Positions 15,298 to 43,722 of a stretch of DNA of 64,000 nucleotides are shown one piece after another. Position numbers and translations under genes: made by a program. Each line of letters starts with the position of its first letter. Position 1 is the stretch's first letter. The notes beneath the pieces were generated by a model, which saw only the letters and a list, made by a program, of their open reading frames with translations, did no database searches and was not told the DNA's origin. Source of the DNA: Bacteroidota bacterium (lineage in GTDB: Bacteria > Bacteroidota > Bacteroidia > AKYH767-A > 2013-40CM-41-45); assembly GCA_016721305.1 (NCBI GenBank), contig JADKIH010000002.1, positions 1,828 to 65,827 of the forward strand, in the 5' to 3' direction.

Positions 15298-15520
15298 CTT
15301 TTGCAACCCGCAACCCGCAACTGCGCAACTCGCACCCACCTGGCAACTCGCAACTCGCAACCCGCAACCCAACCCCCCCACCCGCAACTTCTGTGAGGAA
15401 GTGAGTGGAAGTGGCTGAGGAGTGGAAGTTTGAAGTCCTTCGCCCGCAACCCCAACTCGCAACCCACAACCCGCACCCGTAACTCGTAACTCGCAACTCG
15501 CAACCCGCAACCCGCAACCC
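15298..15520. repeat. GC-rich heptamer tandem repeats (GCAACCC/GCAACTC) in two blocks around a GGAAGTG-repeat core
   Basis: 15298-15392 and 15444-15520 carry cgcaacccgcaactcgcaac repeats. Inverted copies are at 19473-19630 and 28320-28378. Track ORFs here (15247..15768-, 15279..15533-, 15293..15517-) are repeat artefacts. Confidence 0.7.
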
Positions 15521-15531
15521 GTCGGCTGAGC

Positions 15532-16353
15532 ATGTCGAAGCCCGATTTTTTCCCTACCTTCGCCCCCGAAATGATTTCGAAAGTAAAACCGGCAGTAAAA
15601 GAGGCAGGCGAATGGTTTGAAACCTGGTTCGACTCGCCTTATTACCATATTCTTTACAAAGAACGTGATCAGGATGAAGCGGAAGCTTTCCTCGATGCGC
15701 TCATCGCTTATCTTAAACCGGCCGATCATAGTCGTATTCTCGATGTGGCTTGCGGAAAAGGTCGCCACTCGATTTACCTGAACGAAAAAGGATTCGACGT
15801 TACGGGATTCGATCTCTCCGAAGAGAGCATTTTACACAATAAGGATTTCGAAAACGATACTCTGCATTTCTATCTGCATGATATGCGCGAAGTGTTTCGC
15901 GCTAATTACTTCGATATCGTAATGAATCTCTTCTCGAGCTTCGGTTACTTCCGAACGGAACGCGATAATATCCGCTGTCTGATCGCCCACTCTTCAGCTC
16001 TTAAAAAAGAAGGCATATTTGTATTCGATTATTTCAACTCGGAGAAAATTCTTGCCGGCGGTAACAGCAATTTCACCAAGACGGTCGACGGTATCGATTT
16101 TCATATCACGAAGACGATCGTCGGAAAAGAAATTATCAAGGAAATCGAATTCACTGACAACGGCCAAGCCTATCACTTCGAAGAACGAGTAAAACTATAT
16201 AGCCGCGCCGATCTGGAAAAATACTTCCTCAGCGCCGGCTTGAATATCACAAATGCATTCGGAAATTATGCACTAGAAGAATTCGACAGCAAAAATTCCG
16301 ACCGACTTATTTTAGTTGCACGTAAAAAACCCGTCGTACATGCCGCTAATTAG
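15532..16353 (+). CDS. Class I SAM-dependent methyltransferase
   Basis: Motif I ILDVACGKGRHSIYLNEKGFDVTGFDLSEESI. Intact ORF. Confidence 0.8.
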   Translation: MSKPDFFPTFAPEMISKVKPAVKEAGEWFETWFDSPYYHILYKERDQDEAEAFLDALIAYLKPADHSRILDVACGKGRHSIYLNEKGFDVTGFDLSEESILHNKDFENDTLHFYLHDMREVFRANYFDIVMNLFSSFGYFRTERDNIRCLIAHSSALKKEGIFVFDYFNSEKILAGGNSNFTKTVDGIDFHITKTIVGKEIIKEIEFTDNGQAYHFEERVKLYSRADLEKYFLSAGLNITNAFGNYALEEFDSKNSDRLILVARKKPVVHAAN

Positions 16354-17056
16354 TTACTTCCTCCTCTTTATTACGATCGTTATCAGTGGCGCTTCGGTGT
16401 TTGCCTTCAAGCAAATTAATCAGAAGCAGCTGAAATTACTTTTGTCGTTCAGCGGGTCGTATCTATTTGCATTGACGGTTCTGCATCTGATCCCTGAAGT
16501 ATACAAAGGATCGGATCACACGATCGGCATCTTTATCTTCGCCGGATTTTTCCTACAGATCATTCTCGAATTTTTCTCCGAAGGAATTGAGCACGGACAC
16601 ATACACATTCACAAACATCAGAATGCAGCTTTTCCGTACGGAGTAATGATCGGCCTTTGCCTTCACTCTTTCATGGAAGGAATGCCGCTCGTGCAAAACT
16701 TCGATGAGAGCTCAACACAAAATTCTTTGCTCGCCGGAATTATCTTTCATCACATTCCTGTCGCCATTGCCTTAATGAGCATGCTGCTTCAATCAGGAGT
16801 CACTAAAAAATCAGCCATCTTCTTTCTCGTCCTATTTGCACTCATGGCTCCTACCGGTGCTCTCACCAGTACCTTGCTCGGCAGCGGCGACTGGCAAAAT
16901 CTACCTCTCTTCTACAACAGAATGATGGCCATGGTCATCGGTATCTTCCTTCACATCTCTACCACTATACTCTTCGAATCATACGGCGAACACCGATTTA
17001 ATTTTTTGAAGCTGATGATTATTTTGCTTGGAGGGGGATTGGCGTTTTTGAGTTAA
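16340..17056 (+). CDS. ZIP-family metal (Zn/Fe) transporter
   Basis: His-rich loop HGHIHIHKH and the conserved HSFMEGMPL segment, with multiple TM helices. ATG at 16340 overlaps the methyltransferase stop. Confidence 0.8.
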   Translation: MPLISYFLLFITIVISGASVFAFKQINQKQLKLLLSFSGSYLFALTVLHLIPEVYKGSDHTIGIFIFAGFFLQIILEFFSEGIEHGHIHIHKHQNAAFPYGVMIGLCLHSFMEGMPLVQNFDESSTQNSLLAGIIFHHIPVAIALMSMLLQSGVTKKSAIFFLVLFALMAPTGALTSTLLGSGDWQNLPLFYNRMMAMVIGIFLHISTTILFESYGEHRFNFLKLMIILLGGGLAFLS

Positions 17057-17061
17057 CTTTT

Positions 17062-17104
17062 AGTAAGTAGTAAGTTGACTTACTGCTTACTACTTACTAC
17101 TAAA
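17062..17104. repeat. GTAAGTW-family hairpin acting as a bidirectional terminator between convergent genes
   Basis: tagtaagtagtaagttgacttactgcttactacttactacta forms a 14-bp imperfect stem with a ttgac loop. It lies between ZIP (+) and the peroxiredoxin (-). Confidence 0.5.
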
Positions 17105-17151
17105 ACAAGCTGCAAGCGCCTCCTTCAACAACGCCATATTCGGAAAATCGC

Positions 17152-17565
17152 CTAGATTCGGAAGAACTTCGGCGTAGCGAAGAATTTCCTTTTGTCGATG
17201 ATGAAAGTGGCGCGCTTGGCAACATCCTTATAGCCGAAGGCGAAATCGTGATGGATAATATCGAAAGCTTTAATGGCTTCTTTATTGAAATCAGACAATA
17301 ACGGATAGGTGATCTTATTGTCTTCTCCAAAACGCTTCAAAGCGAAGAGAGTATCAACCGATACTCCTACCACTTCTGCATTCAAATTGGCGTAGGATGT
17401 ATAATCTTCCTGAACGGCACAAACTTCCTTTGTACAAACGCCTGTCCAAGCCATTGGAAAAAAGAACATTACAAGGTTTTTGCCTTTGAAATGCTCTAAT
17501 GTAATTTCTTTCTTTTCTGTGTCCACCAGCTTAAAATCCGGTGCTTTTTGTCCGATTTTTAACAT
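17152..17565 (-). CDS. Atypical 2-Cys peroxiredoxin (Tpx/AhpC-TSA family)
   Basis: FPMAWTGVCTKEVCAVQE carries the peroxidatic Cys in a T-x-x-C context. Thioredoxin fold. Confidence 0.7.
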   Translation of the reverse strand: MLKIGQKAPDFKLVDTEKKEITLEHFKGKNLVMFFFPMAWTGVCTKEVCAVQEDYTSYANLNAEVVGVSVDTLFALKRFGEDNKITYPLLSDFNKEAIKAFDIIHHDFAFGYKDVAKRATFIIDKRKFFATPKFFRI

Positions 17566-17776
17566 ATTTTATTGCTTTTTAATCATTTTTCACAAAAGTA
17601 TACCATTCCAAAATGAAAATACAAATAGAGAATGGTATATCCCGCAGGGATCTTGGTTCATTTATATCGTAAACTGATGTAAGATTGGTATAAATCATTC
17701 TTTCTTAGAATCAGCTATGCTTCTATTCCGTAATTTTGCATTTCATTAATTATCAATCTAAAAAACAATTATACAA

Positions 17777-18404
17777 ATGGCATTAGTAGGTAAAAAAGCT
17801 CCTTCATTCAAGGCTAAAGCAGTGGTATTGGGCGATCAATTCGTGAACGATTTTTCGCTCGATCAATACATCGGAAAAAACATGTGGTGTTTTTCTTTTA
17901 TCCGAAAGATTTCACTTTTGTGTGTCCGACTGAATTACATGCATTCCAGGAAAAACTGGGTGAATTCGAAAAAGAAATGTAGCTGTCGTAGCATGTTCTA
18001 CTGACACCGAACAATCACACTGGGGATGGCTCCAGATGCCGAAAAAACATGGTGGTATTCAGGGCATCACTTATCCGGTTGTTGCTGATACAACGAAAAC
18101 AATTTCTATCAACTACGGCGTATTGTCAGGCGACTATCAATACAACGAAGAAGGTGAACTTGTTGCTACAGGACCAATGATTGCTTTCCGCGGATTGTTC
18201 CTCATCGACAAAGACGGAAAAGTTCGTCACGAACTCATCAACGATTTCCCATTAGGTCGTAACGTCGACGAAGCTCTCCGTATGGTAGACGCTTTACAAT
18301 TCTTCGAAGAAAACGGCGAAGTATGTCCTGCCAACTGGACAAAAGGTGGCGAGGGTATGAAAGAATCGCATACGGCGGTGGCTGATTATATGGCGAAGAA
18401 ATAA
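17777..18404 (+). CDS. ahpC: Alkyl hydroperoxide reductase C (typical 2-Cys peroxiredoxin), split into three frames by two missing As in A-homopolymers
   Basis: N-terminus [23 protein letters not shown]...YIGK. Reading A7 at 17875-17880 gives [31 protein letters not shown]. Reading A6 at 17969-17973 gives [28 protein letters not shown]..., which continues into track ORF 18036..18404. Confidence 0.85.
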
Positions 18405-18693
18405 ATTAGCTAATTAGCTGATTAGATAATTAGCTAATGTCGGTAGGATTCAGCTTACTTGTTGTACAAGTTGTTGACGTTTAGTTTGACACAGAATCAA
18501 CTACCTTATTGGGCAAACAGTTGACTTGTTGGACTACGTAACATTAGCTGAATAACCAATGTCGGTAGGATTCAGCTTACTTGTTGTACAAGTTGTTGAC
18601 GTGTAGTTTGGCACAGAATCAACTCCCTTATTGGGCAAACAGTTGACTTGTTGATCGACGCAAAATTAGCTAATTAGCTCATCAGCTAATTAG
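18405..18693. repeat. Intergenic repeat block: two direct repeats of about 96 bp (period 122 bp) flanked by TAATTAGC heptamer/palindrome tracts
   Basis: Unit 1 at 18437-18531 and unit 2 at 18559-18652 are about 95% identical (atgtcggtaggattcagcttacttgttgtacaagttgttgacgt...). The flanks are aattagctaattagc repeats. It lies between convergent ahpC and mazG. Confidence 0.7.
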
Positions 18694-19467
18694 CTAATTT
18701 TTTTTCGCCTCATTCCAATAAACATCCATCTCCGCCAACGTCATATCCGATAAATTTTTTCCAAGTTTGCGGGCGGCTTCTTCGAGGTATTGAAAACGGT
18801 AAATAAATTTTTTATTGGTGCGCTCTAATGCTTCTTCGGCATTGATGTTTTTGAACCTTGCATAATTGATTAAACTAAAAAGCACATCTCCGAATTCAGA
18901 CTCCATATGCTTTTGATCATTGTTGTCGGATGCTTCTTTAAATTCCGCAATCTCTTCCTGCACTTTCTCCCAAACCTGATGCGGTTCTTCCCAGTCGAAA
19001 CCGACACCTCTCGCCTTCTCCTGAATGCGCATGGCTTTAATCATTGCCGGCAACGACTTAGGAACTCCGCCTAACACAGACTTATTTCCTTCTTTCAGTT
19101 TCAACTGCTCCCAATTGCGTTTTACATCTTCTTCGTTCTGCACTTTTACGTCGCCGTAAATATGGGGATGACGATAAATCAGTTTCTCACACTGTGCATT
19201 TATTACATCAGCAATATCAAATGCCTTCTTCTCCGATGCAATCTTTGCATAGAAAACTAAATGCAACATAATGTCGCCGAGTTCTTTTTTGATTTCCGGC
19301 AGATCGTTTTCAATAATACTGTCGGTTAACTCAAATGTCTCTTCGATTGTCAAATGACGTAGACTTTCCATCGTCTGCTTCATATCCCAAGGACATTGCG
19401 CACGCAATTCGTCCATAATCGTTGCGAGTCGTTCGAAGGCTTGGGCTCTGGGGGAAATTTGTGTCAT
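18694..19467 (-). CDS. mazG: Nucleoside triphosphate pyrophosphohydrolase MazG
   Basis: MTQISPRAQAFERLATIMDELRAQCPWDMKQTMESLRHLTIEETFEL and the tandem EE..E motifs. The track ORF start at 19533 runs into upstream repeats, so ATG 19467 is the likely start. Confidence 0.85.
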   Translation of the reverse strand: MTQISPRAQAFERLATIMDELRAQCPWDMKQTMESLRHLTIEETFELTDSIIENDLPEIKKELGDIMLHLVFYAKIASEKKAFDIADVINAQCEKLIYRHPHIYGDVKVQNEEDVKRNWEQLKLKEGNKSVLGGVPKSLPAMIKAMRIQEKARGVGFDWEEPHQVWEKVQEEIAEFKEASDNNDQKHMESEFGDVLFSLINYARFKNINAEEALERTNKKFIYRFQYLEEAARKLGKNLSDMTLAEMDVYWNEAKKN

Positions 19468-19472
19468 GGTGG

Positions 19473-19630
19473 TGGGTTGCGAGTTGCGGGTTACGAGTTG
19501 CGGGTTGCGGGTTGCGAATCTGTTCACTCCCACTGTTACTCAAACTCGCACTACGGGTTGCGGGTTACGGGTTACGAGTTGCGGGTTTACGGGTTACGAG
19601 TTGCGGGTTACGAGTTGCGGGTTGCGGCCG
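19473..19630. repeat. GC-rich heptamer tandem repeats (GGGTTGC/GAGTTGC), inverted copy of the 15298-15520 family
   Basis: gttgcgggttacgagttgcgggttgcgggttgcg... sits in the divergent mazG/SRPBCC promoter region. Track ORFs 19396..19692, 19422..19664 and 19466..19681 are repeat artefacts. Confidence 0.7.
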
Positions 19631-19726
19631 GCTACACCAAGCAACAAAGCAAAAATGCAAATAATTCCCCTCTCTCCCTGAACTTTCATTGACCTGATAT
19701 TGTTATTTATTCAACTAACTTGCATC

Positions 19727-20195
19727 ATGAGTGTTCAAAACTTAGTCTTTCGTCAGAAGCTTGAAACAGACCTCGATACGGCCTGGGCTTTTTAGCGATC
19801 CGAAAAACCTGGCGAGGATTTGTCCTCCGGAAATGAATTTTCAAATCAAATCAGGACTTAATAATTTAGGCACTTATGCCGGACAAATTATTCGCTATTC
19901 TGTTTCTCCCGTGATGGGAATTCCGATGGAATGGATTACTGAAATCACTCATGTAGTCGATAAAAAACTCTTTGTCGATGAGCAACGCAAAGGCCCATAC
20001 AAAATGTGGCATCACCAACATCACTTCGAAAAAGTCGATGGCGGTGTACTCATGACGGACATCCTCCATTACGAAGTCCCTGCAGGATTCCTTGGAAATT
20101 TGCTGAATCAGATTTTTATCCGAAAAAAAGTTCTTGAAATTTTCAAATACAGAGAACAAGTAATTCCGGAGTTACTGAAACAAAATAATAAATAA
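19727..20195 (+). CDS. SRPBCC (START/Bet v1-like, polyketide-cyclase fold) protein with a +1 frame break in T5 at 19789-19793
   Basis: N-terminus MSVQNLVFRQKLETDLDTAWAF (ATG 19727) is in one frame. ...SDPKNLARICPPEMNFQIKSG... continues in track ORF 19761..20195. Reading T4 joins them. Confidence 0.6.
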
Positions 20196-20196
20196 C

Positions 20197-20292
20197 CACT
20201 AAGACACTAAGACACTAAGACACTAAGACACTAAGGCAAAACAGCAAGGCTACTTACTACTTACTACTTACTACTTACTACTCACTACTTAC
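20197..20292. repeat. Two adjacent tandem arrays: (CACTAAGA)x4 and (CTACTTA)x6
   Basis: cactaagacactaagacactaagacactaagg, then after a 14-bp gap ctacttactacttactacttactacttactactcactacttac. Confidence 0.7.
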
Positions 20293-20311
20293 AATTTCCA
20301 CCCGACAAGCC

Positions 20312-20337
20312 AAAAAAAAACCGGGCATCCGCCCGGC
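20312..20337 (-). terminator. Rho-independent terminator of apaG
   Basis: The minus strand reads ggccgggcggatgcccgg followed by T9. Confidence 0.6.
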
Positions 20338-20386
20338 CTTTCCCGTAAGAATAATTCTTTCCACTTCGGTTTATTGAATAGGTATC

Positions 20387-20773
20387 TTAGTTCATTTTGT
20401 ATGGCACCACAAGTTGAAACTCAGGGATGCGAACGTAGAATTGTTTTTTGTCGATCAGTCGTTCCATCATATATGTTCCGTACATCTTACCAACTTCAGA
20501 TTCAAGATTACATCCTGAAATATACTGATAGCTTTCACCTGTACCGATGATTGGCTGTTCACCAACAACGCCTTCTCCTTCAACTTCTCGATTAGTAGAA
20601 TTTGAATCGATGATAAACCAGTGGCGACGCATCAGCTGAACTGAGTATTCGCTATTGTTAGTGATCGTAATTCTATATGCGAAGATGTGATGTCCGAGAG
20701 TTGCATTACTTTGATCAGGGCGATAAAAAATCTCTACGCTGACCTTAACTCCTGATGTTACTTGTGTAATCAT
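20387..20773 (-). CDS. apaG: ApaG (DUF525) protein
   Basis: YRITITNNSEYSVQLMRRHWFIIDSNSTNREVEGEGVVGEQPIIGTGESYQYISGCNLESEVGKMYGTY matches the ApaG core. Start is the internal ATG at 20773. Confidence 0.8.
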   Translation of the reverse strand: MITQVTSGVKVSVEIFYRPDQSNATLGHHIFAYRITITNNSEYSVQLMRRHWFIIDSNSTNREVEGEGVVGEQPIIGTGESYQYISGCNLESEVGKMYGTYMMERLIDKKQFYVRIPEFQLVVPYKMN

Positions 20774-20918
20774 AACTGCCTTTGTTGATGAATCAAATAT
20801 ATCCAAACAACCGAAAAAAGCGAAAATAATTTGATAAACACCCAAAAAAGGGTTGCCAAGGCCTTAATTTGATGGTAAATGGCACATGGGATTAGGTGAA
20901 ATTTTGTAAGAAAAAGGC

Positions 20919-20943
20919 AAAAAAAAACCGCTTATGAGGCGGA
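20919..20943 (-). terminator. Rho-independent terminator downstream of the ABC-F gene and the small membrane ORF
   Basis: The minus strand reads ccgcctcataagcgg followed by T9. Confidence 0.5.
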
Positions 20944-21084
20944 TAGCTGAATAAAGAAGAAGATAACGACGGATAAAAACAGGGTAATTTCGAAGAAAGC
21001 CAATAGCCAGGTGAAATAAATCGCCTTTTTGCTTTCCCGATGTTGACTCAAATATGTTTTTACCAGACGTTGCGCAGTCACCAT
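20932..21084 (-). CDS. Small hydrophobic membrane protein (50 aa)
   Basis: MVTAQRLVKTYLSQHRESKKAIYFTWLLAFFEITLFLSVVIFFFIQLSAS has a coherent TM segment and its stop lies inside the terminator stem. It is a better candidate than overlapping track ORF 20864..21094. Confidence 0.3.
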   Translation of the reverse strand: MVTAQRLVKTYLSQHRESKKAIYFTWLLAFFEITLFLSVVIFFFIQLSAS

Positions 21085-21103
21085 GAAGGGGCAATATAGA
21101 AAT

Positions 21104-23031: not shown

Positions 23032-23140
23032 GGCGCGAAAGTCGGAAATTCCTGTCAATGAACCTCAAAATTTATCCGTTTTTGAAATAAAATATATCTT
23101 GCAGGCTCAAACACACAATCATTCAAAAACGAATAAAATC

Positions 23141-23995: not shown

Positions 23996-24032
23996 ACAAC
24001 AATTGCTCAACGCAATTTAATATACCTGTACA

Positions 24033-24413: not shown

Positions 24414-24416
24414 GCT

Positions 24417-24968: not shown

Positions 24969-25129
24969 ATCATTTCAAAGGCGCAATTCGGATGAAGCCG
25001 CAATGAAGAATGAGCATGCGTTATCTGAATTAACTTTTCTTCACTCTTTTCGGCTCACTACTTCATACTCGCATCATTGATGTTCGGGTAAACTTGCATC
25101 ATAATTTTAACAAACCAATCTTAACAATC

Positions 25130-25366: not shown

Positions 25367-25387
25367 TCTTCGTTTCCCTGATGGTTA

Positions 25388-25421
25388 AAGGCTGAAAGCA
25401 CTTCGCTCTCAGCCTTTTTTT
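25388..25421 (+). terminator. Rho-independent terminator
   Basis: ggctgaaagcacttcgctctcagcc followed by T7. Confidence 0.55.
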
Positions 25422-28316: not shown

Positions 28317-28319
28317 AAA

Positions 28320-28378
28320 ACGGTTGCGAGTTGCGGGTTTCGAGTTACGCAACCCGCAACCCATCTCGCAACCCGTAC
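28320..28378. repeat. GCAACCC-family hairpin (10-bp perfect stem gttgcgggtt/aacccgcaac)
   Basis: ggttgcgagttgcgggtttcgagttacgcaacccgcaacccatctcgcaacccg lies between a T9SS cargo gene and the exonuclease gene. Confidence 0.6.
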
Positions 28379-29750: not shown

Positions 29751-29768
29751 TGGGGGCTTGCTGAGATA

Positions 29769-29837
29769 GAAATTAGGAATTAGGAATTAGGAATTAGAAT
29801 TAGAAATTAGAAATTAGTAATTAGTAATTAGTAATTG
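29769..29837. repeat. Tandem AATTAGN heptamer array (about 10 units)
   Basis: aattaggaattaggaattaggaattagaattagaaattagaaattagtaattagtaattagtaatt. Confidence 0.7.
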
Positions 29838-29840
29838 GAA

Positions 29841-30413
29841 ATGACAGGATTTAGAATAATTTTGATTTGGGTAATGAGTTTTGTTTTATTTTCGGGCTTT
29901 GTTGCTGATGATTTTTATTCGGTACAGTTGAAGGACGTAAAGGGTGTATATCATAAATTAAATGAATATAAAGGATCGGAAGGAACGGCTGTTGTGTTTT
30001 TATTGGCTGACTGTCCGGCATCCCAGTATTACTCGCTGACGTTAAATCAACTTTCTCAAAAATACATTTCCAAAAAGATTCAACTAATTGGAGTTTTTGC
30101 CGGGAAGTACACGAAAGCAACTGAAGTCGCAAAATTTGTGAAAGATTATAAAATCAATTTTCCTGTTCTCACAGATAAAGAAATGATTCTTGCAGGAAAA
30201 CTAAAAGCGACAACGGCTCCTGAGGTTTTCCTTCTCGATAAAAATGCAAACGTTGTCTATTCAGGAAGAATCGACGATACATATTATGCTCCGGGAAGGA
30301 AGAAAAGTAATACGGCCGTTCATGATTTACAAAATGCCATGGAAGCGTGCCTTAAGGGAAAAACTCCTTCCGTTTCCAAAACAAAAGCTATAGGCTGCAT
30401 TCTCGAATACTAA
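29841..30413 (+). CDS. Thioredoxin-fold (redoxin/TlpA-AhpC-like) protein with a single-Cys motif
   Basis: Signal or TM segment, then VVFLLADCPASQYY in thioredoxin-fold topology. Probably the first gene of a three-gene operon. Confidence 0.5.
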   Translation: MTGFRIILIWVMSFVLFSGFVADDFYSVQLKDVKGVYHKLNEYKGSEGTAVVFLLADCPASQYYSLTLNQLSQKYISKKIQLIGVFAGKYTKATEVAKFVKDYKINFPVLTDKEMILAGKLKATTAPEVFLLDKNANVVYSGRIDDTYYAPGRKKSNTAVHDLQNAMEACLKGKTPSVSKTKAIGCILEY

Positions 30414-30416
30414 CGA

Positions 30417-31799
30417 ATGAATTCAAAAATCAGAATACTCGGTTTTCTAATTTGTAGCACTACTCTGCTCTTCTTTGCATGCTCCGGTGGAAAGAAATCG
30501 GAATCAGAGAAGGCTGTTACTTTCTCCGACATTGCTCCTATCGTCTATAAAATTGCACCATGCCACCGCCATGGCTCCGGAGCTCCGTTTAATCTCATCT
30601 CCTATGACGATGTTCGTTCTCATTTGAAAACGATTGAACTTACTGTCAATTCTCGGTTGATGCCTCCTTGGCCGGCCGACACGGCTTACTCTCATTTCAG
30701 AGACGAGAAAGTAATGAGCAAAGCTGATATCTCACTTTTAAATGAGTGGATTAAAAGCGGAGCACCTGAAGGCGATATCAAAAATATCCCTGCACCTCCT
30801 GCCTTCCAGGAAGGAAGCTCATTCGGAAAACCGGATCTCGTTGTAAAAATGCGACAACCATTTTTAATCAAAGGAAATAATAAGGACAATTTCATCATGC
30901 TCAAAGTTCCATACGAGCTTCCTTCTGATACAAATGTCAGAGCTATAGAAATCGTTCCGGGAAACAAAAAGCTTGCTCATCACATCAATGCTCATTTGGT
31001 GCAATACGAAGAAGGCACAAAAACTAATTTCCGGGGCGGAGCACCTTTTGTCGACACAGAAAAAGCAAACAAACTGAAAGCCTTTCAAATGCTTGATCTG
31101 CAAAATGACGACGGTACTTATCCCCGACTGACTCCTTCTGTCACGAATTATTTACCGGGCGTTGAAGTTGCCATTTATCCAAAAGGTATTGGTGGTTATC
31201 GCGTAAAAAAACACGGTGCGATATTGCTTGACAATATTCATTACGGACCATCACCTGTTGACACTAGCGACGTCACAACTTTCAATTTCTTCTTCAGCCC
31301 TAAAAAGCCGGAGAGGCCAACGATTGAAATGATCATCGGTACAAGCGGCATTTCGCCTGTCGAACCGCCTTTAGTTATTCCACCAAATGAAATTAAAACC
31401 TTTATCTCGAAATATACCTTGCCGCAAAGTATTTCCTTGTTGACAGTGAATCCACATATGCACTTATTGGGAGCATCTTTCAAAGCATTCGCCGTTACAC
31501 CAATGGGTGACACCATTCGAATAATTAATATTCCTAAATGGGATTTCAGATGGCAGTACTTCTATACCTACGAGCATATGCTGAAGATTCCACAAGGATC
31601 AACGATCTATTCTGTTGGCACTTACGACAACACAGTAAACAACCCCCTAAATCCTTTCAATCCGCCTCAAACAGTTTCGGAACGCGAAGGAAGTATGAGG
31701 ACAACAGATGAAATGTTCCAGCTCATCTGCACCTTTGTCCCTTATCAGGAAGGCGATGAAAACGTCTCTTTGTTAAATGAAAAACTATCTGACCGATGA
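30417..31799 (+). CDS. His-rich lipoprotein of unknown function, with motifs suggestive of a type-2 copper monooxygenase (PHM/DBH-like) fold
   Basis: Lipobox LLFFAC. Motifs APCHRHGSGAPFNL...MPPW, AHHINAH and NPHMHLLGAS...M-rich. The assignment is speculative. Confidence 0.35.
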   Translation: MNSKIRILGFLICSTTLLFFACSGGKKSESEKAVTFSDIAPIVYKIAPCHRHGSGAPFNLISYDDVRSHLKTIELTVNSRLMPPWPADTAYSHFRDEKVMSKADISLLNEWIKSGAPEGDIKNIPAPPAFQEGSSFGKPDLVVKMRQPFLIKGNNKDNFIMLKVPYELPSDTNVRAIEIVPGNKKLAHHINAHLVQYEEGTKTNFRGGAPFVDTEKANKLKAFQMLDLQNDDGTYPRLTPSVTNYLPGVEVAIYPKGIGGYRVKKHGAILLDNIHYGPSPVDTSDVTTFNFFFSPKKPERPTIEMIIGTSGISPVEPPLVIPPNEIKTFISKYTLPQSISLLTVNPHMHLLGASFKAFAVTPMGDTIRIINIPKWDFRWQYFYTYEHMLKIPQGSTIYSVGTYDNTVNNPLNPFNPPQTVSEREGSMRTTDEMFQLICTFVPYQEGDENVSLLNEKLSDR

Positions 31800-32251
31800 A
31801 CTCAGTCGTTGTTCGTGAACCGAAAACTCAGGAAGAATGGGATGCGTATTATTTGATTCGCTACGAAGTCCTGCGCAAACCATGGAATCAACCTCGCCAA
31901 TCTACAAAAGATGAATTCGAGACTATCTCCTACCATGCTATTTTAATTCTTGACGATAAAGAAATCGTTGGCACCGGACGATTGCAATTCAACACTCCTA
32001 CAGAATTCGCTATACGTTCAATGGCAGTAAAAGAAGGATATCGAAGCAAAGATTACGGAAGTCATATCATCAAACATCTTGAAAGCATAGCACTCTCGAA
32101 AAATTGCAAAAGAATCACACTCGACGCCCGCGAACCCGCATTAAAATTTTACGAAAGAAACGGCTACCGAATTTTTGCACCATCGTATTTGCTGTTCGGT
32201 GTTATTCCGCATTTTAAGATGGAGAAGGTTCTTTCGACTTCCACTGATTAA
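31796..32251 (+). CDS. GNAT-family N-acetyltransferase
   Basis: ILDDKEIVGTGRL...RSKDYGSHIIKHLESIA carries the acetyl-CoA binding motif. It overlaps the upstream stop by 4 nt. Confidence 0.75.
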   Translation: MNSVVVREPKTQEEWDAYYLIRYEVLRKPWNQPRQSTKDEFETISYHAILILDDKEIVGTGRLQFNTPTEFAIRSMAVKEGYRSKDYGSHIIKHLESIALSKNCKRITLDAREPALKFYERNGYRIFAPSYLLFGVIPHFKMEKVLSTSTD

Positions 32252-32352
32252 GTAAGTTGTAAGTTGTAAGTTGTAAGTTGTAAGTTGTAAGTTGTAAGTT
32301 GGTAATTAGCTCTAAGTTAAGTCTACTTACTACTTACAACTTACTACTTACC
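32251..32352. repeat. GTAAGTT x7 array plus its inverted partner, forming a long hairpin between convergent genes
   Basis: agtaagttgtaagttg...(x7) then ggtaattagctctaagttaagtct then acttactacttacaacttactacttacc. Confidence 0.7.
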
Positions 32353-32361
32353 TTTTCATCC

Positions 32362-33419: not shown

Positions 33420-33433
33420 CTTTGGGTGTCGGA

Positions 33434-34129: not shown

Positions 34130-34215
34130 ATGATGTTGTGAAAGTACCGATGACGTCTGTGTTGCATGTTAAGCAAATGTAAAGAAAAGGTTATGTGCAT
34201 GAACCATGAATGCCT

Positions 34216-36252: not shown

Positions 36253-36260
36253 GTGACGGA

Positions 36261-36809: not shown

Positions 36810-37002
36810 ATGCTAATTTTATTTGGCCGAAGTTACGAAGAGAAAGTCAATATTCATCATGCCTTCAGAGGTAGTTCTATCAACACAGGAATGTGAACTA
36901 TGTGTCGCCAAAGAGTGAGCTGAATACAAGAAATTATCCAAAGAATCGCTGTGAAAAGTAACGTAAAATGTCGCTGAAAGATTAAAAAACTCCTGAAATC
37001 AC

Positions 37003-37791: not shown

Positions 37792-38684
37792 CTCAATGCT
37801 GCAGGCAGCTCATTATCCTTCAATGGTGCAAAAGAAAGAAAGTCGCCTGAAGGGACGAGCAAGTAAATTTCCTTTCCATATTTCATCAGTAACTGATTGT
37901 CGGAATTAAATAATCTGACGGCATCAGGCTCTTCGACGCCAAAAAGAATTAGCTTATTGGAAATAAGCTTGTATCCCTTATAGTTGACAGGAGAAACCCA
38001 AAACTCAACTTCGTATTTCTCCTCCTTCGAATCTTTTGACTCAACTAAACCGGCAGCCGGATTGAGCTTATCGGTAGCCGATTGTGCTAGGGTTCCGCTT
38101 TCGCCGGATTTCTTCGACTGATTCAATTCTGACGCCATCAAAGTAACGGAAACGAGCAATTGATCCTTCTTTACAACCATATCCTCGCCGGCTAAAGCCG
38201 ATGAGTCTGAAACTGCTGTTTCTTCGGTGCTTATGGCTTTTTCATCCGTAGCTTCGGAATTCTCATCTGAAACAGTGGTGTCCGCACTTTCTTCTTTTAG
38301 AACAACAGCGGGCTTATTTTTAATAGGCTTCTCCTTTGCTTTCTTGAAAATGTCAAACATGGCGAAATTAGTGATGTGCCTCTTTGGTCCATTCCCAATG
38401 TATTCAAAAAGTAAGATCCCGCTCAGAGTAACAAAGAGGAATATTAAAATCATTTTAAGCCCAAATGGAATCAATGGCTTTTTATAATTCAATGACTCTT
38501 CCAATGCATTTTCGAGACGAGCATCTTCAGCATGTTGAATCGACTCGATCAACAAGTTTTGCAAACTGACAGACTGACGAAACTCTTCATCACTCTCCAA
38601 ACGATCCATAAACTTCTTCAACTCTACTCCACTGAGAGAATTGTCGAGATACCTTTCGATTAAATTTTTATCGTCCTGTATCAT
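37788..38684 (-). CDS. Putative anti-sigma factor (single TM, acidic/Ser-rich extracytoplasmic region)
   Basis: It overlaps both the ECF sigma gene upstream and dapF downstream by 1-4 nt. N-terminal cytoplasmic helix, then TM segment ILIFLFVTLSGILLF. Confidence 0.45.
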   Translation of the reverse strand: MIQDDKNLIERYLDNSLSGVELKKFMDRLESDEEFRQSVSLQNLLIESIQHAEDARLENALEESLNYKKPLIPFGLKMILIFLFVTLSGILLFEYIGNGPKRHITNFAMFDIFKKAKEKPIKNKPAVVLKEESADTTVSDENSEATDEKAISTEETAVSDSSALAGEDMVVKKDQLLVSVTLMASELNQSKKSGESGTLAQSATDKLNPAAGLVESKDSKEEKYEVEFWVSPVNYKGYKLISNKLILFGVEEPDAVRLFNSDNQLLMKYGKEIYLLVPSGDFLSFAPLKDNELPAALR

Positions 38685-39211
38685 TAGTTCACGGTTGGAT
38701 TTAAACGTGCAATGGCAATTGTGCGAAACTGATTCAAAGCTTTTTCAACTTCAAATTGTGCAATCACAGGATTGCCGAATTCAAATCGTGCGGCTATTTC
38801 CTCATAGCTCATTTTGCTTACATATCGTGCACTGAGGAGATTTCTGAAATTTTCGTCTAAAATTCCAAAACAAGATGCAACAATTGTCTTATCACGATCC
38901 GATGTTTCGGAAATGGATTGATTCTTTTTCCTGCGGAAATCTTCACCGGAATTTTCAAGAAATTCACCCATCGTATTAAACAAAAATGGTTCGAATTCCA
39001 CAGTCGGCAAAATTCGTTTGTGCTGAATGAGCCTGTAAATACGAACAAGTACTTTCGAAAAAACCTGAGGCGTCGACGAATCAGGCACACCTTTTCTACG
39101 AAGCCATCTTCGGGAGGTCTGGAAATATTTCTTGTTCAGATAAAACAAAGTTTCTTCCTGACCGTTTTGTAAAGAGGTGATTAGTTCCTGATTCGATTTA
39201 CCTGCATTCAT
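38684..39211 (-). CDS. ECF-subfamily RNA polymerase sigma-70 factor
   Basis: Region 2 (ELITSLQNGQEETLFYLNKKYFQTSRRWLRRKG) and region 4 (LLSARYVSKMSYEEIAARFEFGNPVIAQFEVEKAL). Internal ATG at 39211. Confidence 0.75.
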   Translation of the reverse strand: MNAGKSNQELITSLQNGQEETLFYLNKKYFQTSRRWLRRKGVPDSSTPQVFSKVLVRIYRLIQHKRILPTVEFEPFLFNTMGEFLENSGEDFRRKKNQSISETSDRDKTIVASCFGILDENFRNLLSARYVSKMSYEEIAARFEFGNPVIAQFEVEKALNQFRTIAIARLNPTVN

Positions 39212-39446
39212 GCGGACGTAAAAGTACGATAAAAGAGCTTCCCTAATTGACAAAAATGGCACTTTTACACGATAAATATTGACATCGAAACTGTAAAAGT
39301 GACAGAGTCGATGGTTCAATCTTAAAGAATTCTTAACGGACACTTAACGATTTTTAACCCTGTCATTCATTTTTGCTTCATTGATTCTAAGTGAATTTTG
39401 ACGGCATAAAATTTGAAATTCAGGAATCCCAAAAAACCTTATTACT

Positions 39447-40895
39447 ATGTACAACACAATGAAAAAAGCATTCGGAATCCTGGTACTTGGTTGCCTCGGT
39501 GGATTTGGCGGCTCTTACCTCTTCTCGAATTTCGGACCGGGCAGTTACTCTGCTCTTCGAACAGTTTCAGACAAACAAAATGTCCACTTTGCAAGCATGC
39601 CAATGAGTGCTGTTGAAAACGCACCAATTGATTTTACCAAAGCCGCCGACCTTACCGTCCATGCTGTTGTTCACGTAAAAACTTTTTATACTAATCAAGC
39701 CAAGTACAATCCTTTTGGAATGAATCCTTTTGACTTCTTCGGACGTCCTCAGCAAATGCAACCTCAGGAAGCCAGCGGATCAGGAGTTATTATTACCGAC
39801 GACGGTTACATCGTTACAAACAACCACGTAGTTGAAAACGCAGATAAGGTTGAAGTGACGCTGAACGACAACCAAACTTATACAGCCAAGGTAATTGGTA
39901 CGGATCCTTCAACGGATCTTGCTCTTTTGAAAATTTCAGAAAAAAATCTACCCTTCATTGCCTATGGAAATTCAGACGACCTGAAAGTCGGAGAATGGGT
40001 TCTGGCAGTCGGAAATCCATTTAACCTGACAAGCACGGTAACAGCAGGAATCGTTAGTGCTAAAGCCCGAAACATCAATATCCTTCCCGATCAATATAAG
40101 ATCGAATCTTTTATTCAAACCGATGCAGCCGTTAATCCGGGCAACAGCGGTGGCGCTCTGGTAAATAATCAAGGCCAACTTATTGGAATCAACTCTGCGA
40201 TTGCCTCAAACACAGGTTCATTTACCGGCTACTCATTCGCCATCCCTTCCAACCTGGTAAGAAAAGTAATTGATGATCTCGTCGAATTCGGAAGCGTACA
40301 GCGTGGTTTCATTGGAATCAGTATTCGCGATATTGATTCAAAACTGATCGACGAAAAAGGCCTTAAAGGAACTCAAGGTGTTTATGTAGCCGGCTTAACT
40401 GAAGGAGGTGCTGCTGAAGAAGGTGGATTAAAAGAAGGTGATGTCATTACGAAAGTAGGTTCGGTTGACGTAAACAGTACTCCACAGCTGCAGGAACAGG
40501 TTGGCAGATATCGCCCGGGTGACAAAATTGCTGTTACCGTTTTGCGCGAAGGAAAGGAAAGAAATTTCTCTCTCACGCTTCGAAACAAAGAAGGTGATAC
40601 AAGAATTATCAAAAACGAAGAACCACTCCGTCTCCTCGGTGGCACGTTTGAAAACGTAAATCAGGAAGAACGCTCCAAACTGGGAATTCGCGGCGGAGTG
40701 AAAGTTTCTAAGCTACTCAGCGGCAAACTCAGAAGCGCCGGTATTCAGGAAGGATTTATTATTACCTCCATCGACAAAAAACCTATTGCAGGTACCGACG
40801 ACCTTGAATCTGCTCTCAAAACGAAACAAGGTGGCGTCCTGATCGAAGGGGTATATCCTAATGGTATGAAAGCCTATTATGGCTTTGGAATCTGA
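39447..40895 (+). CDS. degP: HtrA/DegP-family periplasmic serine protease (trypsin domain plus 2 PDZ domains)
   Basis: GSGVIITDDGYIVTNNHVV (His), D, and GNSGGALVN (Ser). Two PDZ-like segments. Signal peptide. Confidence 0.9.
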   Translation: MYNTMKKAFGILVLGCLGGFGGSYLFSNFGPGSYSALRTVSDKQNVHFASMPMSAVENAPIDFTKAADLTVHAVVHVKTFYTNQAKYNPFGMNPFDFFGRPQQMQPQEASGSGVIITDDGYIVTNNHVVENADKVEVTLNDNQTYTAKVIGTDPSTDLALLKISEKNLPFIAYGNSDDLKVGEWVLAVGNPFNLTSTVTAGIVSAKARNINILPDQYKIESFIQTDAAVNPGNSGGALVNNQGQLIGINSAIASNTGSFTGYSFAIPSNLVRKVIDDLVEFGSVQRGFIGISIRDIDSKLIDEKGLKGTQGVYVAGLTEGGAAEEGGLKEGDVITKVGSVDVNSTPQLQEQVGRYRPGDKIAVTVLREGKERNFSLTLRNKEGDTRIIKNEEPLRLLGGTFENVNQEERSKLGIRGGVKVSKLLSGKLRSAGIQEGFIITSIDKKPIAGTDDLESALKTKQGGVLIEGVYPNGMKAYYGFGI

Positions 40896-40929
40896 AAAAA
40901 GGCATTTTAGGTTCGATTTTTGTGGTTGG

Positions 40930-40960
40930 AAAAGAGTCCTTCGTGGACTCTTTTCTTTTT
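40930..40960 (+). terminator. Rho-independent terminator
   Basis: aaaagagtccttcgtggactctttt followed by cttttt. Confidence 0.5.
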
Positions 40961-41103
40961 CAACAAAACAGAAGAGTTATTAACCGAAACTGTACAAAAA
41001 CTTGCTTCGCCTTTCATTAAAACGTATCTTCGCAGTCTAAGAAAAAGTCCAAATTTTCTTTGAATTCGCTTATTTTTTCAATAAATAATCTCTCTCAAAG
41101 CTC

Positions 41104-41967
41104 ATGCGTCAGCTAAAAATAACCAAATCGATTACCAATCGCGAGAGTCAGTCTCTCGAAAAATACCTTCAGGAAATCGGCCGCGAGGAATTGATTACTG
41201 CAGAAGAGGAAGTTCGACTTGCCCGCCGCATCAAAGAAGGCGATCAGGTTGCTTTGGATCGTTTGACAAAAGCCAACTTACGTTTCGTGGTATCGGTTGC
41301 TAAACAATACCAGAATCAAGGCTTGAGTTTACCCGATCTGATCAACGAAGGTAATCTTGGTTTGATCAAAGCTGCTAAACGTTTTGACGAGACTCGCGGA
41401 TTCAAATTCATCTCCTACGCTGTATGGTGGATTCGTCAGAGTATCCTTCAGGCATTAGCTGAACAATCACGTATCGTTCGCCTTCCATTGAATCAGGTTG
41501 GCTCACTCAATAAAATTTCTAAAGCTTATTCTAAACTCGAGCAGGAATTCGAACGCGAACCTTCTCCTGAAGAGTTGGCTAAGATTCTTGACATCCCAAC
41601 GGAAAAGATTGCCGACACAATGCGTGTCAGCGGTAAGCACGTTTCGATGGATGCTCCTTTCGTTCAGGGAGAAGATAACAGTCTGATCGACGTATTAGAG
41701 AATTCCGATTCTCCACGCGCCGATGGTCTGTTGATGAACGAATCACTACAAAAAGAAATCGATCGCTCACTCAGCACTCTTACTGAGCGCGAACGAGAAG
41801 TCATCAAATTATTCTTCGGCATTGGAATGCAGCACGGACTCACACTGGAAGAAATCGGAGCTAAATTCGATCTTACACGTGAACGCGTTCGTCAGATTAA
41901 GGAAAAAGCGATTCGTCGCCTCCGCCACAAATCCAGAAGCCGTTTATTAAAAGCTTACTTGGGATAA
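41104..41967 (+). CDS. rpoD: Primary sigma factor sigma-A (short Bacteroidota form lacking region 1.1)
   Basis: [37 protein letters not shown] (region 2), then regions 3 and 4. 287 aa. Confidence 0.9.
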
Positions 41968-42003
41968 TAAATATTGATCAAATGCAATTTTGACAAACAG
42001 AAG

Positions 42004-42038
42004 CAGCTTTCATGGTTAATGAAAGCTGTTTGTGTTTT
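42004..42038 (+). terminator. Rho-independent terminator of rpoD
   Basis: cagctttcatggttaatgaaagctg followed by tttgtgtttt. Confidence 0.55.
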
Positions 42039-42152
42039 AGGTTAATTCAGAATGTAGAATTGAAAATTATGAATTAATAGCAATTTAGTTTTCTGAATTT
42101 TGAATTCTAAATTTTAAATTCAAAAAAGAACCCTTTAAACTCAATTAATATC

Positions 42153-43636
42153 ATGTCCGAAGCCTTAAAAGACACCCAAAAAGTGAATCACAAAGACAAG
42201 TATGAAAATGAGCTTGCTGACTGGATTCAGCAGGAGAAAGCTGCAATTGCTCTAATCCACGTTGCAGGTAGTATGTGGTTTGACAAATCGGTTGAGATTG
42301 TGCTCTTCCGAAATCAACTTGTTGACCGTAGCGCAAGTGAGATCCTGAATCTCCATCAATACTCTAAACAAGTTGTCAAGAAACCGATAAACGTTATCGA
42401 AACTCTTGCGCTTGCAAAAGAGATGAATAAGATTGAACTCGCTCCTTCTCGTATCGACATCGGAGTACTTTGCTCCGAGTGGATTCAGGAACGCAAGAAT
42501 TATAAGAACGCCGAGGAATTTATCGGCAACAAACTCCGCGATTTTATCGGTAAAGAAAAACGTGTGATGGTTCCGAAAGATGTAGTACTCTACGGTTTCG
42601 GTCGTATCGGTCGTTTGCTTATGCGCGAATTGGTAACTCAAGCCGGTAAAGGCGAACAGTTACGTCTGCGTGCAGTAGTAACACGAAACAACAGCGACGA
42701 AGACATCATGAAACGTGGCGATCTTTTACGTAACGACTCAGTTCACGGTGCATTCCCCGGAACAGTGATCGAAGATTTTGAACATAAAGCCCTAATCGTA
42801 AACGGACATTCTGTTCAAATGATTGCATCAAACGATCCTTCAACGATCGATTATACAGCTTATGGCATTCATGATGCAATTGTGATCGACAACACGGGTG
42901 TCGTTCGTGATCGCGAAGGTTTGAGCAAGCACTTGAAATCAAAAGGTGTCAGCAAAGTACTTCTTACCGCTCCGGGAAAAGGTGATGTTCCAAATGTTGT
43001 TTATGGTGTTAATGAAAGCGCCTTTGATCATACTAAGGAAACTGTATTCTCAGCTGCCTCTTGTACGACGAATGCAATCGTCCCGGTATTATCTGTGATC
43101 GAAAGCACTCTCGGCATTGAACGTGGACATATCGAAACTATTCACTCCTACACGAACGATCAGAATTTGCTCGATAACTATCATGCAAAATATCGTCGTG
43201 GTCGCTCAGCGGCTCTCAATATGGTTATCACTGAAACCGGTGCAGATAAGGCTGTAGCGAAAGTTATCCCTCATCTTGCAGGTAAATTAACCGGTAATGC
43301 CGTGCGTGTCCCAACTCCTGATGTATCTCTGGCTATCCTTAATCTCACCGTTAAAAAGAGACAAGCAAAGACGGCGTAAACGAAATTCTTCGTAATGCTT
43401 CTTTACAAGGTGATCTCGTTGAACAAATCCAATACTCCGTATCAAATGAATTGGTATCGACGGATCTTGTAGGCAACTCCTGCGCCTCTATCGTCGACAG
43501 CCCTGCAACAATCGTATCAAAAGACAATAAGTCGATGGTACTTTATGTGTGGTATGATAACGAGTACGGATACAGTCGTCAGGTAATTCGTTATGCGAAG
43601 TATTTGGCGGATGTGATTCGGTTGAGATACTATTAA
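42153..43636 (+). CDS. gap: Glyceraldehyde-3-phosphate dehydrogenase, long form with a roughly 130-aa N-terminal extension. One missing A in the A5 run at 43353-43357
   Basis: VVLYGFGRIGR (NAD site), catalytic SAASCTTNAIVP, C-terminal WYDNEYGYS. Reading A6 gives ...LTVKKETSKDGVNEILRNASLQGDLVEQIQYSVSNELVSTDLVGN..., which continues into track ORF 43451..43636. Confidence 0.8.
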
Positions 43637-43639
43637 AAA

Positions 43640-43722
43640 GGTAAGTTGTAAGTAGTAAGTAGTAAGTTGACTTGCTGTAGAAAGAGTAAGTCAACTTACT
43701 ACTTACTACTTACTACTTACCA
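43640..43722. repeat. GTAAGTW-family perfect long hairpin (bidirectional terminator) between convergent gap and a lipoprotein gene
   Basis: ggtaagttgtaagtagtaagtagtaagttgactt...aagtcaacttactacttactacttactacttacc. Confidence 0.7.

Follow-up and report, generated by a model that had tools for sequence, protein, structure and literature searches.

Heptanucleotide tandem repeats in the intergenic DNA of a wastewater Bacteroidota

Between the genes of contig JADKIH010000002.1, from a Bacteroidota bacterium, short tandem arrays built mostly of seven-nucleotide units recur at locus after locus, and the question that they raise is what kind of sequence they are, how they came to lie where they do and whether they act on the genes beside them. 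We analysed a stretch of 64,000 nt of this contig (hereafter the window), for which an earlier note, made from the letters alone, had described three 7-mer families arranged as direct arrays and as inverted partners, some of which it read as bidirectional terminators. In our view the arrays are quite probably lineage-amplified heptanucleotide (and a few octanucleotide) simple-sequence repeats, the Bacteroidota counterpart of the short tandemly repeated repetitive (STRR) sequences of cyanobacteria and of the GGGNATC repeats of Xanthomonas and Nostoc. They are a dense example of a known repeat class rather than a new system.

Array census and position relative to genes

Arrays were called with Tandem Repeats Finder (TRF), which returned 52 rows for the window, mainly of period 7, and once overlaps had been removed the set comprised 16 period-7 arrays and four of period 14. 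Fifty first-order Markov randomisations gave an expectation of 1.3 period-7 arrays per 64 kb, and the period-7 scores, which reach 100 in the window, had a maximum of 35 in the randomised sequences, so that chance is excluded as the origin of the arrays. Within this one genome the units belong to the heptamer families GTAAGTW, GCAACYC, AATTAGR, TATTGAA and ATAGAGA and to the octamers AATTAGCT and CACTAAGA (Table 1); TATTGAA/TCAATCT, ATAGAGA and CACTAAGA are additions to the earlier list. The arrays on that list were all recovered, by TRF and in the sequence, in the families assigned to them, with the exception of an octamer pair: the third 7-mer family, given as AATTAGN, is a true heptamer at locus J, and at loci F1 and F2 the unit is the period-8 AATTAGCT. 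A few irregular units of 6 or 8 nt occur within arrays (29798, 19587). A CRISPR array can be ruled out, since the units are 7-8 nt long and directly abutting, without the unique spacers that separate the 20-50 nt repeats of a CRISPR array.

With gene positions taken from a curated list in which frameshift-split open reading frames (ORFs) were merged, all 12 array loci fall in non-coding DNA, which is ~18% of the window (P about 1e-9). The arrays make up ~8% of this non-coding DNA, or 12% if a 4-kb low-GC island is set aside. Repeats of 7 nt would put any gene out of frame, and the arrays found within genes have periods of 6, 9, 12 and 15. The likeness to STRRs drawn by the earlier note thus holds, in that these are heptanucleotide simple-sequence repeats confined to non-coding DNA, and the same location rules out an explanation as coding repeats. 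The overlaps that remain between arrays and ORFs are artefacts, namely 15247-15768 (-), 19396-19692 (+) and the GTG/TTG extensions of mazG (GTG to 19533) and of the TonB receptor gene, so the repeats do create spurious ORFs, as had been said. In contig L001, from a related strain, mazG is called from an ATG six bases past the array.

Arrays are found in 12 of the 32 intergenic gaps whose flanking genes have a defined orientation: five of seven convergent gaps, three of seven divergent ones and four of 18 co-directional ones. The divergent cases include the gap between mazG and its 156-aa neighbour, as reported earlier, and that between a 510-aa gene and rnpB; the label 'SRPBCC' that had been used in describing the former was not confirmed by Pfam or NCBIfam. 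Loci E, F1, F2, K and M begin 0-10 nt from stop codons.

Table 1. Coordinates of the arrays, their families and associated features in the window (TRF copy numbers given as x; RNA folds as range, kcal/mol and z-score)
Feature	Position	Strand	Composition	Site	RNA fold
GTAAGTW family or complement WACTTAC	1896-1946, 2272-2324, 17061-17101, 20250-20292, 32252-32301 + 32323-32351, 43641-43667 + 43694-43720				
GCAACYC/GTAACYC family or complement	15303-15388 + 15443-15521, 19474-19517 + 19552-19627, 28323-28378				
AATTAGR heptamer	29767-29842		sole true heptamer locus of the 'AATTAGN' family		
Locus A, left arm	1878-1952		GTAAGTW array, x7.3 (TRF 1896-1946); inner junction GTAAGTTGACTT at 1941, outer box GGCGAAGGTAG	8 nt upstream of ATG (1868) of the 510-aa minus-strand gene	
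Locus A, right arm	2262-2332		WACTTAC array 2272-2324, inverted copy of left arm; terminates in CTACCTTCGCC	directly 5' of rnpB (2332)	
Locus B	2739-2852		TATTGAA x3.3 (2739-2761) and inverted partner TCAATCT x4.6 (2821-2852)	between the canonical rnpB terminator (2708-2730) and the TonB-dependent receptor gene's promoter region	2735-2856; -36.4; -7
Locus D	15303-15521	+	two direct GCAACYC arrays (15303-15388, 15443-15521), ~12 units each, 54-nt purine-rich spacer; G-rich complement is template strand	upstream of -7-like box CTACCTTCGCC (15554) and the methyltransferase gene	no hairpin
Locus E	17061-17101		minimal GTAAGTW/WACTTAC palindrome, apex GTAAGTTGACTTAC, 15-bp stem	convergent gap, ZIP transporter gene/peroxiredoxin gene	17055-17106; -19.2; -4.6
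Locus F1	18404-18438		self-complementary octamer AATTAGCT x4.4	begins at stop codon of AhpC-like gene	
Locus F2	18664-18699		octamer AATTAGCT x4.5; 18-bp perfect stem at 18662-18701	overlaps mazG stop codon	18660-18704; -21.3; -8.3
Locus G	19474-19627	-	two direct GCAACYC/GTAACYC arrays (GTTGCGR on + strand), 19474-19517 and 19552-19627	ends 6 nt before mazG ATG (19467)	
Locus H	20197-20292		perfect CACTAAGA octamer x4.9 (20197-20235) and WACTTAC x6.1 (20250-20292), both direct	convergent gap, 156-aa gene/apaG	unfolded
Locus I	28323-28378		GTTGCGR x3.4, then GCAACCC units; forms hairpin	63-nt gap, gene of protein with type IX secretion system (T9SS) sorting domain/DnaQ-GIY-YIG exonuclease gene; stem stops 3 nt before ATG	28318-28378; -30.8; -5.8
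Locus J	29767-29842	+	AATTAGR/AATTAGT x10.9 direct array, unit variants in blocks	directly upstream of -7 box TAATTTTG (29857) and AhpC-TSA-family gene	no fold
Locus K	32252-32351		GTAAGTT x7.1 (32252-32301) and WACTTAC x4.1 (32323-32351); mismatch about every 7 nt of stem	straight after GNAT gene TAA stop; convergent gap with histidine-kinase gene	32245-32358; -35.7; -4.7
Locus M	43640-43721		(GTAAGTW)4-GACTTGCT, 8-nt loop, AGTAAGTC-(WACTTAC)4; 37-bp stem (29 bp + 7 bp)	begins at stop codon of 231-aa minus-strand gene	43633-43728; -57.4; -12
ATAGAGA array	12720-12744	+	x3.6; marginal (score 36 vs shuffle maximum 35)	inside low-GC island	
Convergent gaps with arrays	17057-17151, 18405-18693, 20196-20386, 32252-32361, 43601-43724				
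GTAAGTTGACTT occurrences	1941, 2277, 17070, 43662, 43699	+, -, +, +, -			
CTACCTTCGCC copies	1877-1887, 2320-2330, 15554-15564	-, +, +		each directly downstream of an array	
RNase P RNA, bacterial class A (rnpB)	2332-2704	+	231.8 bits, full length		
tRNA-His	49028-49102				
Homopolymer under-calls	19789, 28789, 29234, 29291, 30552-30557, 33392, 43353, 45917, 45998		window 1-2 bases short against every covering Illumina contig		

Two of these loci are more complex than a simple array. At locus A the two arms, separated by 313-346 nt, form one long inverted repeat (1878-1952 against 2262-2332) that fills the whole divergent gap between the 510-aa gene and rnpB, and since it covers the entire gap both divergent units share upstream sequence. 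Its AT-rich interior (1953-2261, ~310 nt, between arms of 60-75 nt) holds no notable ORF and no Rfam family; such a segment might conceivably be an invertible promoter (inverton). Between the two AATTAGCT arrays F1 and F2, a 122-nt unit is tandemly duplicated (18436-18671, x1.9, 92% identity), with a short AATTAGCT remnant sitting between its copies; the arrangement is consistent with a duplication that arose through recombination between arrays. No Rfam family matched the 122-nt unit, and the weak anti-hemB and isrF matches that came up in the Rfam searches were dismissed as they scored far below the gathering thresholds.

Copy number among strains, relatives and known repeat systems

For comparison within the population we used strain contigs from short-read metagenome assemblies, found by exact-protein look-up and 94-99.9% identical to the window, which cover loci G, J, K and M. 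The same arrays are present at the same places, with different copy numbers at three loci (K, G and J). At locus K the strains have 5-13 GTAAGTW units on the left and 4-5 units on the right, and the variants GTAAGTA and GTAAGTT stand in homogeneous blocks; the distal array of locus G has 15.7 units in L001 against 10.7 in the window, with a different order of unit variants; and locus J has ~8-11 units. Locus M is unchanged in both contigs that span it (L118 and L121) save for one substitution, GTAAGT to GTAATT. In a census of indels, the differences between strains within arrays were changes of whole units. Because copy number shifts by whole units at three loci, the arrays are slippage-driven repeats of the variable-number tandem repeat (VNTR) kind. 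Several short-read contigs end inside arrays, four of them breaking inside locus M, from which we infer that the genome contains many copies of the units and that these entangle the graphs of short-read assemblies. The look-up gave no match for five proteins encoded beside arrays or near the edges of the window, those of 17152-17565, 15532-16353, 336-1868, 20387-20845 and 62753-63820, likely due to homopolymer errors or start-codon choice in the window.

In regards to the phylum as a whole, we compared the window with 80 Bacteroidota reference loci (1.47 Mb). Strong arrays there are most often of period 7, at 1.0-1.4 per 100 kb, and next most often of period 8, while the window has 14-17 period-7 arrays per 100 kb, a density ~12-14x the background. 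The earlier opinion that heptamer periodicity is unusual for Bacteroidota therefore does not hold, since the class is already the commonest one and has been published (PMC4679880); only the density is unusual. None of the unit families of the window occurs with three or more exact units in the 80 reference loci. With period 7 the commonest class in the reference loci and the window far denser, the 7-nt preference is general and the density a lineage trait, with unit sequences that turn over fast and permissive positions that are reused. In the comparison with relatives that the earlier note had proposed for family expansion, the closest relative reuses the positions but has other units. The closest relative (L011), in which the gene order around mazG is conserved, carries a GTAAGTR hairpin with 29-nt arms in the orthologous apaG/156-aa-gene gap, which in the window contains an array of this family in direct form, and its mazG/AhpC convergent gap (10760-10895) holds three copies of the decamer ATGAAGTARA facing eight of the pentamer CACTT instead of AATTAGCT. 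These decamer and pentamer arrays are partly complementary and so constitute an inverted pair with different periods. No array was found upstream of mazG in this relative. In Candidatus Pollutiaquabacter (L014) there are 10.9 copies of AGTTGAA as well as an inverted AGTAATT/AGTTACT pair with 72-nt arms.

Two other loci from Bacteroidota metagenome-assembled genomes (MAGs) contain telomere-like G-rich heptamers, TTTAGGG x5.9 (L044, 5882-5922) and TTAGGGT x4.0 (L067, 6421-6448). A scan of a viral collection with (GTAAGTW)3 gave 28 contigs (L090-L117), several of them labelled as giant-virus bins, with a run of at least 12 units in L106; since these viral stretches carry it, the bare three-unit GTAAGTW pattern is not lineage-specific.

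Among the described repeat systems, cyanobacterial STRRs (Calothrix, Nostoc/Anabaena) share with the present arrays the 7-nt unit, the coexistence of several families and the dispersed non-coding location. STRRs have been reported inside rnpB of heterocystous cyanobacteria; in a curious parallel, the arrays here flank this gene. In the window rnpB is bracketed by WACTTAC on its 5' side and by the TATTGAA/TCAATCT pair on its 3' side. As the host is a member of the Bacteroidota and the unit sequences are unrelated, the arrays are STRR-like and not STRRs sensu stricto, and they differ further in that Rehm et al. found only few inverted pairs in Nostoc (PMC4692102), whereas here such pairs are a large share.

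The broader class is that of long simple-sequence repeats (SSRs), among which, as the survey of Mrazek (2007) is cited in PMC4679880 and PMC4692102, heptanucleotides are the most abundant in prokaryotes, polymerase slippage has been proposed as their origin, and units whose length is not a multiple of three are kept out of genes. The arrays of the window share with this class, whose units measure 5-11 nt, head-to-tail copies beyond chance, confinement to non-coding DNA, whole-unit polymorphism and several dispersed families; the predominance of period 7 in the 80 Bacteroidota loci agrees with the survey as so cited, and it is by its density that the window differs. Intergenic arrays of 2-26 units of GGGAATC in Xanthomonas and of GGGGAYT in Nostoc were described by Rehm et al. 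(2015; PMC4692102), with 70-75 convergent inverted heptamer pairs per Xanthomonas genome whose lengths differ between species at conserved positions, and with a preference of the G-rich strand for the non-coding strand in the 50 bp upstream of ORFs (PMC4692102). Variable copy number and inverted pairs are common to those repeats and ours, and the G-rich orientation is matched at 15303-15521 and 19474-19627. However, AT-rich units unable to form quadruplexes make up most of the families here (GTAAGTW, AATTAGR, TATTGAA), and where Xanthomonas has one dominant unit, at least five units coexist in 44 kb of the window, without a preference for four units.

Within the Bacteroidota themselves, MacGregor (2015) reported repeats of the heptamer TAACTGA from Beggiatoaceae, Cyanobacteria and five Bacteroidetes, and noted that the intergenic regions of Gramella forsetii and Aequorivita sublithincola contain arrays of great length as well as 'other heptamer direct repeats' (PMC4679880). 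These too are intergenic heptamers near start codons, but they are almost always direct, forward and upstream of start codons, whereas the window has other units and many inverted pairs at 3' ends. The promoter heptamers of hmw in Haemophilus influenzae, whose copy number has a demonstrated graded effect on expression at a single contingency locus (PMC8262952, PMC12721329), are likewise 7-nt repeats of strain-variable copy number in a promoter or 5' leader; they differ in that the present arrays lie at many loci beside housekeeping genes.

Hairpins, promoters and the spread of the arrays

The inverted pairs form near-perfect stems of 15-37 bp, with RNA folds of -19 to -57 kcal/mol (z -4.2 to -12). 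The stems had been described as perfect over 14-40 bp, which is right as to the inverted partners and overstated as to perfection: 18 bp are perfect at F2, and locus K has mismatches. RNA folding also agrees with the coexistence of direct arrays and inverted hairpin pairs, the direct arrays at 20250 and 29767 giving no fold. Being self-complementary in tandem, AATTAGCT lets F1 and F2 each fold on themselves. A consensus scan for canonical terminators with a GC-rich stem and T-run found them at 2708-2730 (rnpB), 42001, 45541, 48295, 49111 and 54685; it found no intergenic canonical site in the array-bearing convergent gaps and detected none of the array hairpins, whose stems are long and AT-rich where an intrinsic terminator has a short GC-rich one. 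The heptamer hairpins are the only strong structures in those gaps, and this is the best argument for a secondary role at transcript 3' ends. A U-rich tail follows the stem in one direction at locus K (+ strand only, 5/8 T) and at locus M (- strand only, 6/8 T, including T5). The F2 stem stands between A4 and T8, with short weak tails on both sides (T-runs of ~4), and is the most terminator-like hairpin of the set, while locus E (17061-17099) has no U-tract in either direction, its T4 and A4 runs belonging to the stem.

These data could be taken to mean that the inverted pairs exist to terminate both convergent transcripts, as dedicated bidirectional Rho-independent terminators, a reading that we regard as possible though rather doubtful. 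It is favoured by the strong hairpin at or within a few nucleotides of a stop codon in four of the five array-bearing convergent gaps, where no canonical GC-rich terminator was flagged although other 3' ends have one, by the tails at K, M and F2, and by the hairpin that L011 retains in an orthologous convergent gap. However, two-sided tails are found only at the octamer F2, where they are short, each heptamer hairpin having at most one and locus E none, so that the earlier proposal of bidirectional terminators is borne out only in part. At locus H the window shows no inverted partner, and the same families lie upstream of promoters or start codons (A, B, D, G, I and J), where termination would be senseless, locus I even ending 3 nt ahead of a start codon. 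For locus B there is already a terminator upstream, rnpB having its own canonical one; the hairpin at 2739-2852 was accordingly ruled out as the rnpB terminator, which precedes it. Among the strains, moreover, the arms vary in length independently and without compensatory changes.

We favour the reading of the arrays as slippage-prone, lineage-amplified simple-sequence repeats. Between co-occurring strains they expand and contract by whole units, in blocks of identical unit variants, which is the signature of replication slippage, and from one species to another the units are replaced although arrays continue to fill the same intergenic positions. Since few unit families recur at many loci, and since the 12-mer GTAAGTTGACTT junction is common to three loci, arrays may also have spread or been homogenised between loci. 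This 12-mer has five occurrences in the window, all at the loop-side edge of GTAAGTW arrays. A candidate route is template-switch inversion (hairpin turn-around), which would create palindromes and, if repeated, nested ones, of which locus E would be the minimal form, locus M the form with an 8-nt loop and locus A that with a ~310-nt interior; ectopic recombination or conversion between arrays is an alternative route. The arrays are probably near-neutral occupants of free intergenic DNA, abutting core promoters, stop codons and start codons, and at some loci the stem-loops that inverted pairs form at gene 3' ends probably have a secondary role as transcript-end or insulating hairpins, the candidates being 32252-32351 (for the + gene), 43640-43721 (for the - gene) and 18662-18701.

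Several points weigh against this account. Slippage alone fails to explain why the same 3-4 units occur at many loci here and other units elsewhere, and an added step of dispersal, conversion or selection is needed. A terminator or insulator role of the hairpins is suggested by position and partial U-tracts, and there is no sign of covariation that would indicate selection on pairing, given that the substitution at locus M is uncompensated in the other arm and that the two arms of locus K vary independently. The excess of arrays in convergent gaps is of borderline significance (5/7 against 7/25; p = 0.05 in a one-sided Fisher test), and statements on the scale of the whole genome are extrapolations from 64 kb and short strain contigs.

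Another hypothesis is that of mobile palindromes, like repetitive extragenic palindromic (REP) sequences, bacterial interspersed mosaic elements (BIMEs) or MITEs (miniature transposable elements with inverted repeats), whose arms merely happen to be slippage-prone heptamer arrays; we hold it to be improbable. REP/BIME elements are frequent where convergent genes end, and there stabilise transcripts or terminate them. Like them and like MITEs, the inverted pairs are short intergenic palindromes, and the confinement of GTAAGTTGACTT to loop-side array edges at three separate loci resembles their pattern; the same units at many loci of one genome and not in other species, the breaks of short-read contigs within arrays, as expected of multi-copy sequence, and the nested architecture of loci E, M and A would also fit. 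However, the arms are tandem arrays of variable length, and we observed no target-site duplications and no conserved outer ends, the flanks being parts of the inverted stems or unrelated. There are no empty sites, since every strain contig that spans a site has the array, and no transposase or gene like the REP-associated tyrosine transposases (RAYT) is present among the annotated proteins of the window. The array-plus-junction pattern GTAAGTWGTAAGTTGACTT gave 13 metagenome matches, about the number expected by chance, mostly with two units, in unrelated contexts and without an inverted partner, and the GTAAGTTGACTT junction was not found in the relatives L010-L014. This junction could also arise repeatedly through hairpin turn-around of a GTAAGT/ACTTAC array. 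A mobile element of the REP or MITE type is less likely than turn-around or ectopic conversion.

At the other end of the genes, some arrays stand immediately before putative promoters. The 11-mer CTACCTTCGCC has three exact copies in the window, where 0.49 matches are expected even with one mismatch allowed, and they lie 8 nt before the ATG of the 510-aa gene, 1 nt before the 5' end of rnpB and 6 nt before the methyltransferase ATG. The -7 promoter consensus of Bacteroidota is TAnnTTTG, from which the CTACCTTCGCC core TACCTTCG is one base off (TAccTTcG), and this core may be a Bacteroidota -7 promoter box; a perfect box, TAATTTTG, follows the array at 29767-29842. TAnnTTTG showed no window-wide enrichment and was applied locally only, and a sigma-70 promoter scan, with a model unsuited to Bacteroidota promoters, showed none over shuffled sequences. 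If the boxes are core promoters, arrays A, D and J are untranscribed upstream DNA that ends at about -35/-40, and the one array that must be part of a leader is that of mazG, abutting the start codon. Motifs of G3 tracts with loops of up to 12 nt occur at five sites in the window, and only one of these (15361-15383, - strand) is within the canonical G-quadruplex limit of four G3 tracts with loops of 1-7 nt.

On this basis the arrays could be thought of as cis-regulatory, with GCAACYC/GGGTTGC serving as G-quadruplex, i-motif or protein-binding sites and copy number tuning the promoters as at hmw of Haemophilus influenzae, which strikes us as slightly less plausible again than mobile palindromes. 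Both direct GCAACYC loci have a G-rich template strand and lie 0-50 nt from a start codon, the same preference of orientation and distance as in the GGGAATC repeats of Rehm et al. (PMC4692102); every G3-tract motif of the window falls in a GCAACYC array; -7-like boxes lie directly beyond the ends of arrays A, D and J; and the strains differ in copy number. On the other hand, a single motif falls inside the canonical loop limit, L011 has no array upstream of mazG, and the flanking genes are unrelated housekeeping genes without a common theme. Since copy number changes either in a leader or upstream of the -33/-7 spacing, no on/off switch is predicted.

A bolder version, in which the inverted modules are self-propagating, lineage-specific REP-like palindromes with apex GTAAGTTGACTT that colonised gene ends and replaced canonical terminators at convergent genes, and in which strains tune stem length, and with it the strength of termination or insulation, by copy number, seems to us a long shot. 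Finally, that the arrays are an artefact of long-read sequencing or assembly has practically no chance of being right: the window does show systematic homopolymer under-calls against Illumina contigs, and the irregular 6- and 8-nt units might be thought to point the same way, but independent short-read assemblies from at least five samples contain the same arrays at the same positions and comparable arrays are present in related species.

Host, sequence quality and significance

The window carries Bacteroidota markers, namely a TonB-dependent receptor with a CarboxypepD_reg domain (TonB/SusC-like) and a protein with a T9SS C-terminal sorting domain, and the best relatives of its MazG are Bacteroidota without exception. 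The closest reference genomes are uncultured MAGs with only ~85% MazG identity; the closest named relative is Candidatus Pollutiaquabacter, which is placed in its own order. The strain contigs of this wastewater population come from ENA wastewater or sewage projects and Logan assemblies.

Outside the arrays, all indels in the census are 1-base (once 2-base) under-calls of the window at homopolymer runs relative to the Illumina contigs, and those covered by several contigs are identical in every one. They split the 156-aa gene, the DnaQ/GIY-YIG exonuclease gene, a 461-aa gene and the genes of the histidine kinase (307 vs 352 aa) and of GAPDH (408 aa against a 480-position profile). On the sequence comparison this looks like residual long-read consensus error rather than pseudogenisation, and such homopolymer errors account for several split genes and for many of the 'spurious ORFs'. 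A stretch of ~4 kb (10133-14180) with ~33% GC, against a window average of ~42%, contains only short fragmented ORFs, mainly on the minus strand; one of them, 11912-12136, resembles a helix-turn-helix protein of the XRE type by eye and had no match in Pfam. The stretch is possibly a foreign island, broken up further by homopolymer errors. At 46359-46406 the hexamer CGATAA (period 6, x4.5) forms a palindrome with 22-nt arms at the 3' end of the minus-strand gene 45858-46361.

In practice, the arrays break short-read assemblies, create spurious ORFs and extend real genes artificially, and they could serve as VNTR-type strain markers for the wastewater population. The origin and function of heptamer arrays in bacterial genomes is a long-noticed puzzle, to which this clade adds a dense, AT-rich, hairpin-heavy example from a different phylum. 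With its strain-level copy variation in public metagenomes, the clade could serve for a comparative study of why the unit is 7 nt long and how units spread, the same questions that have been posed for cyanobacteria and Xanthomonas.

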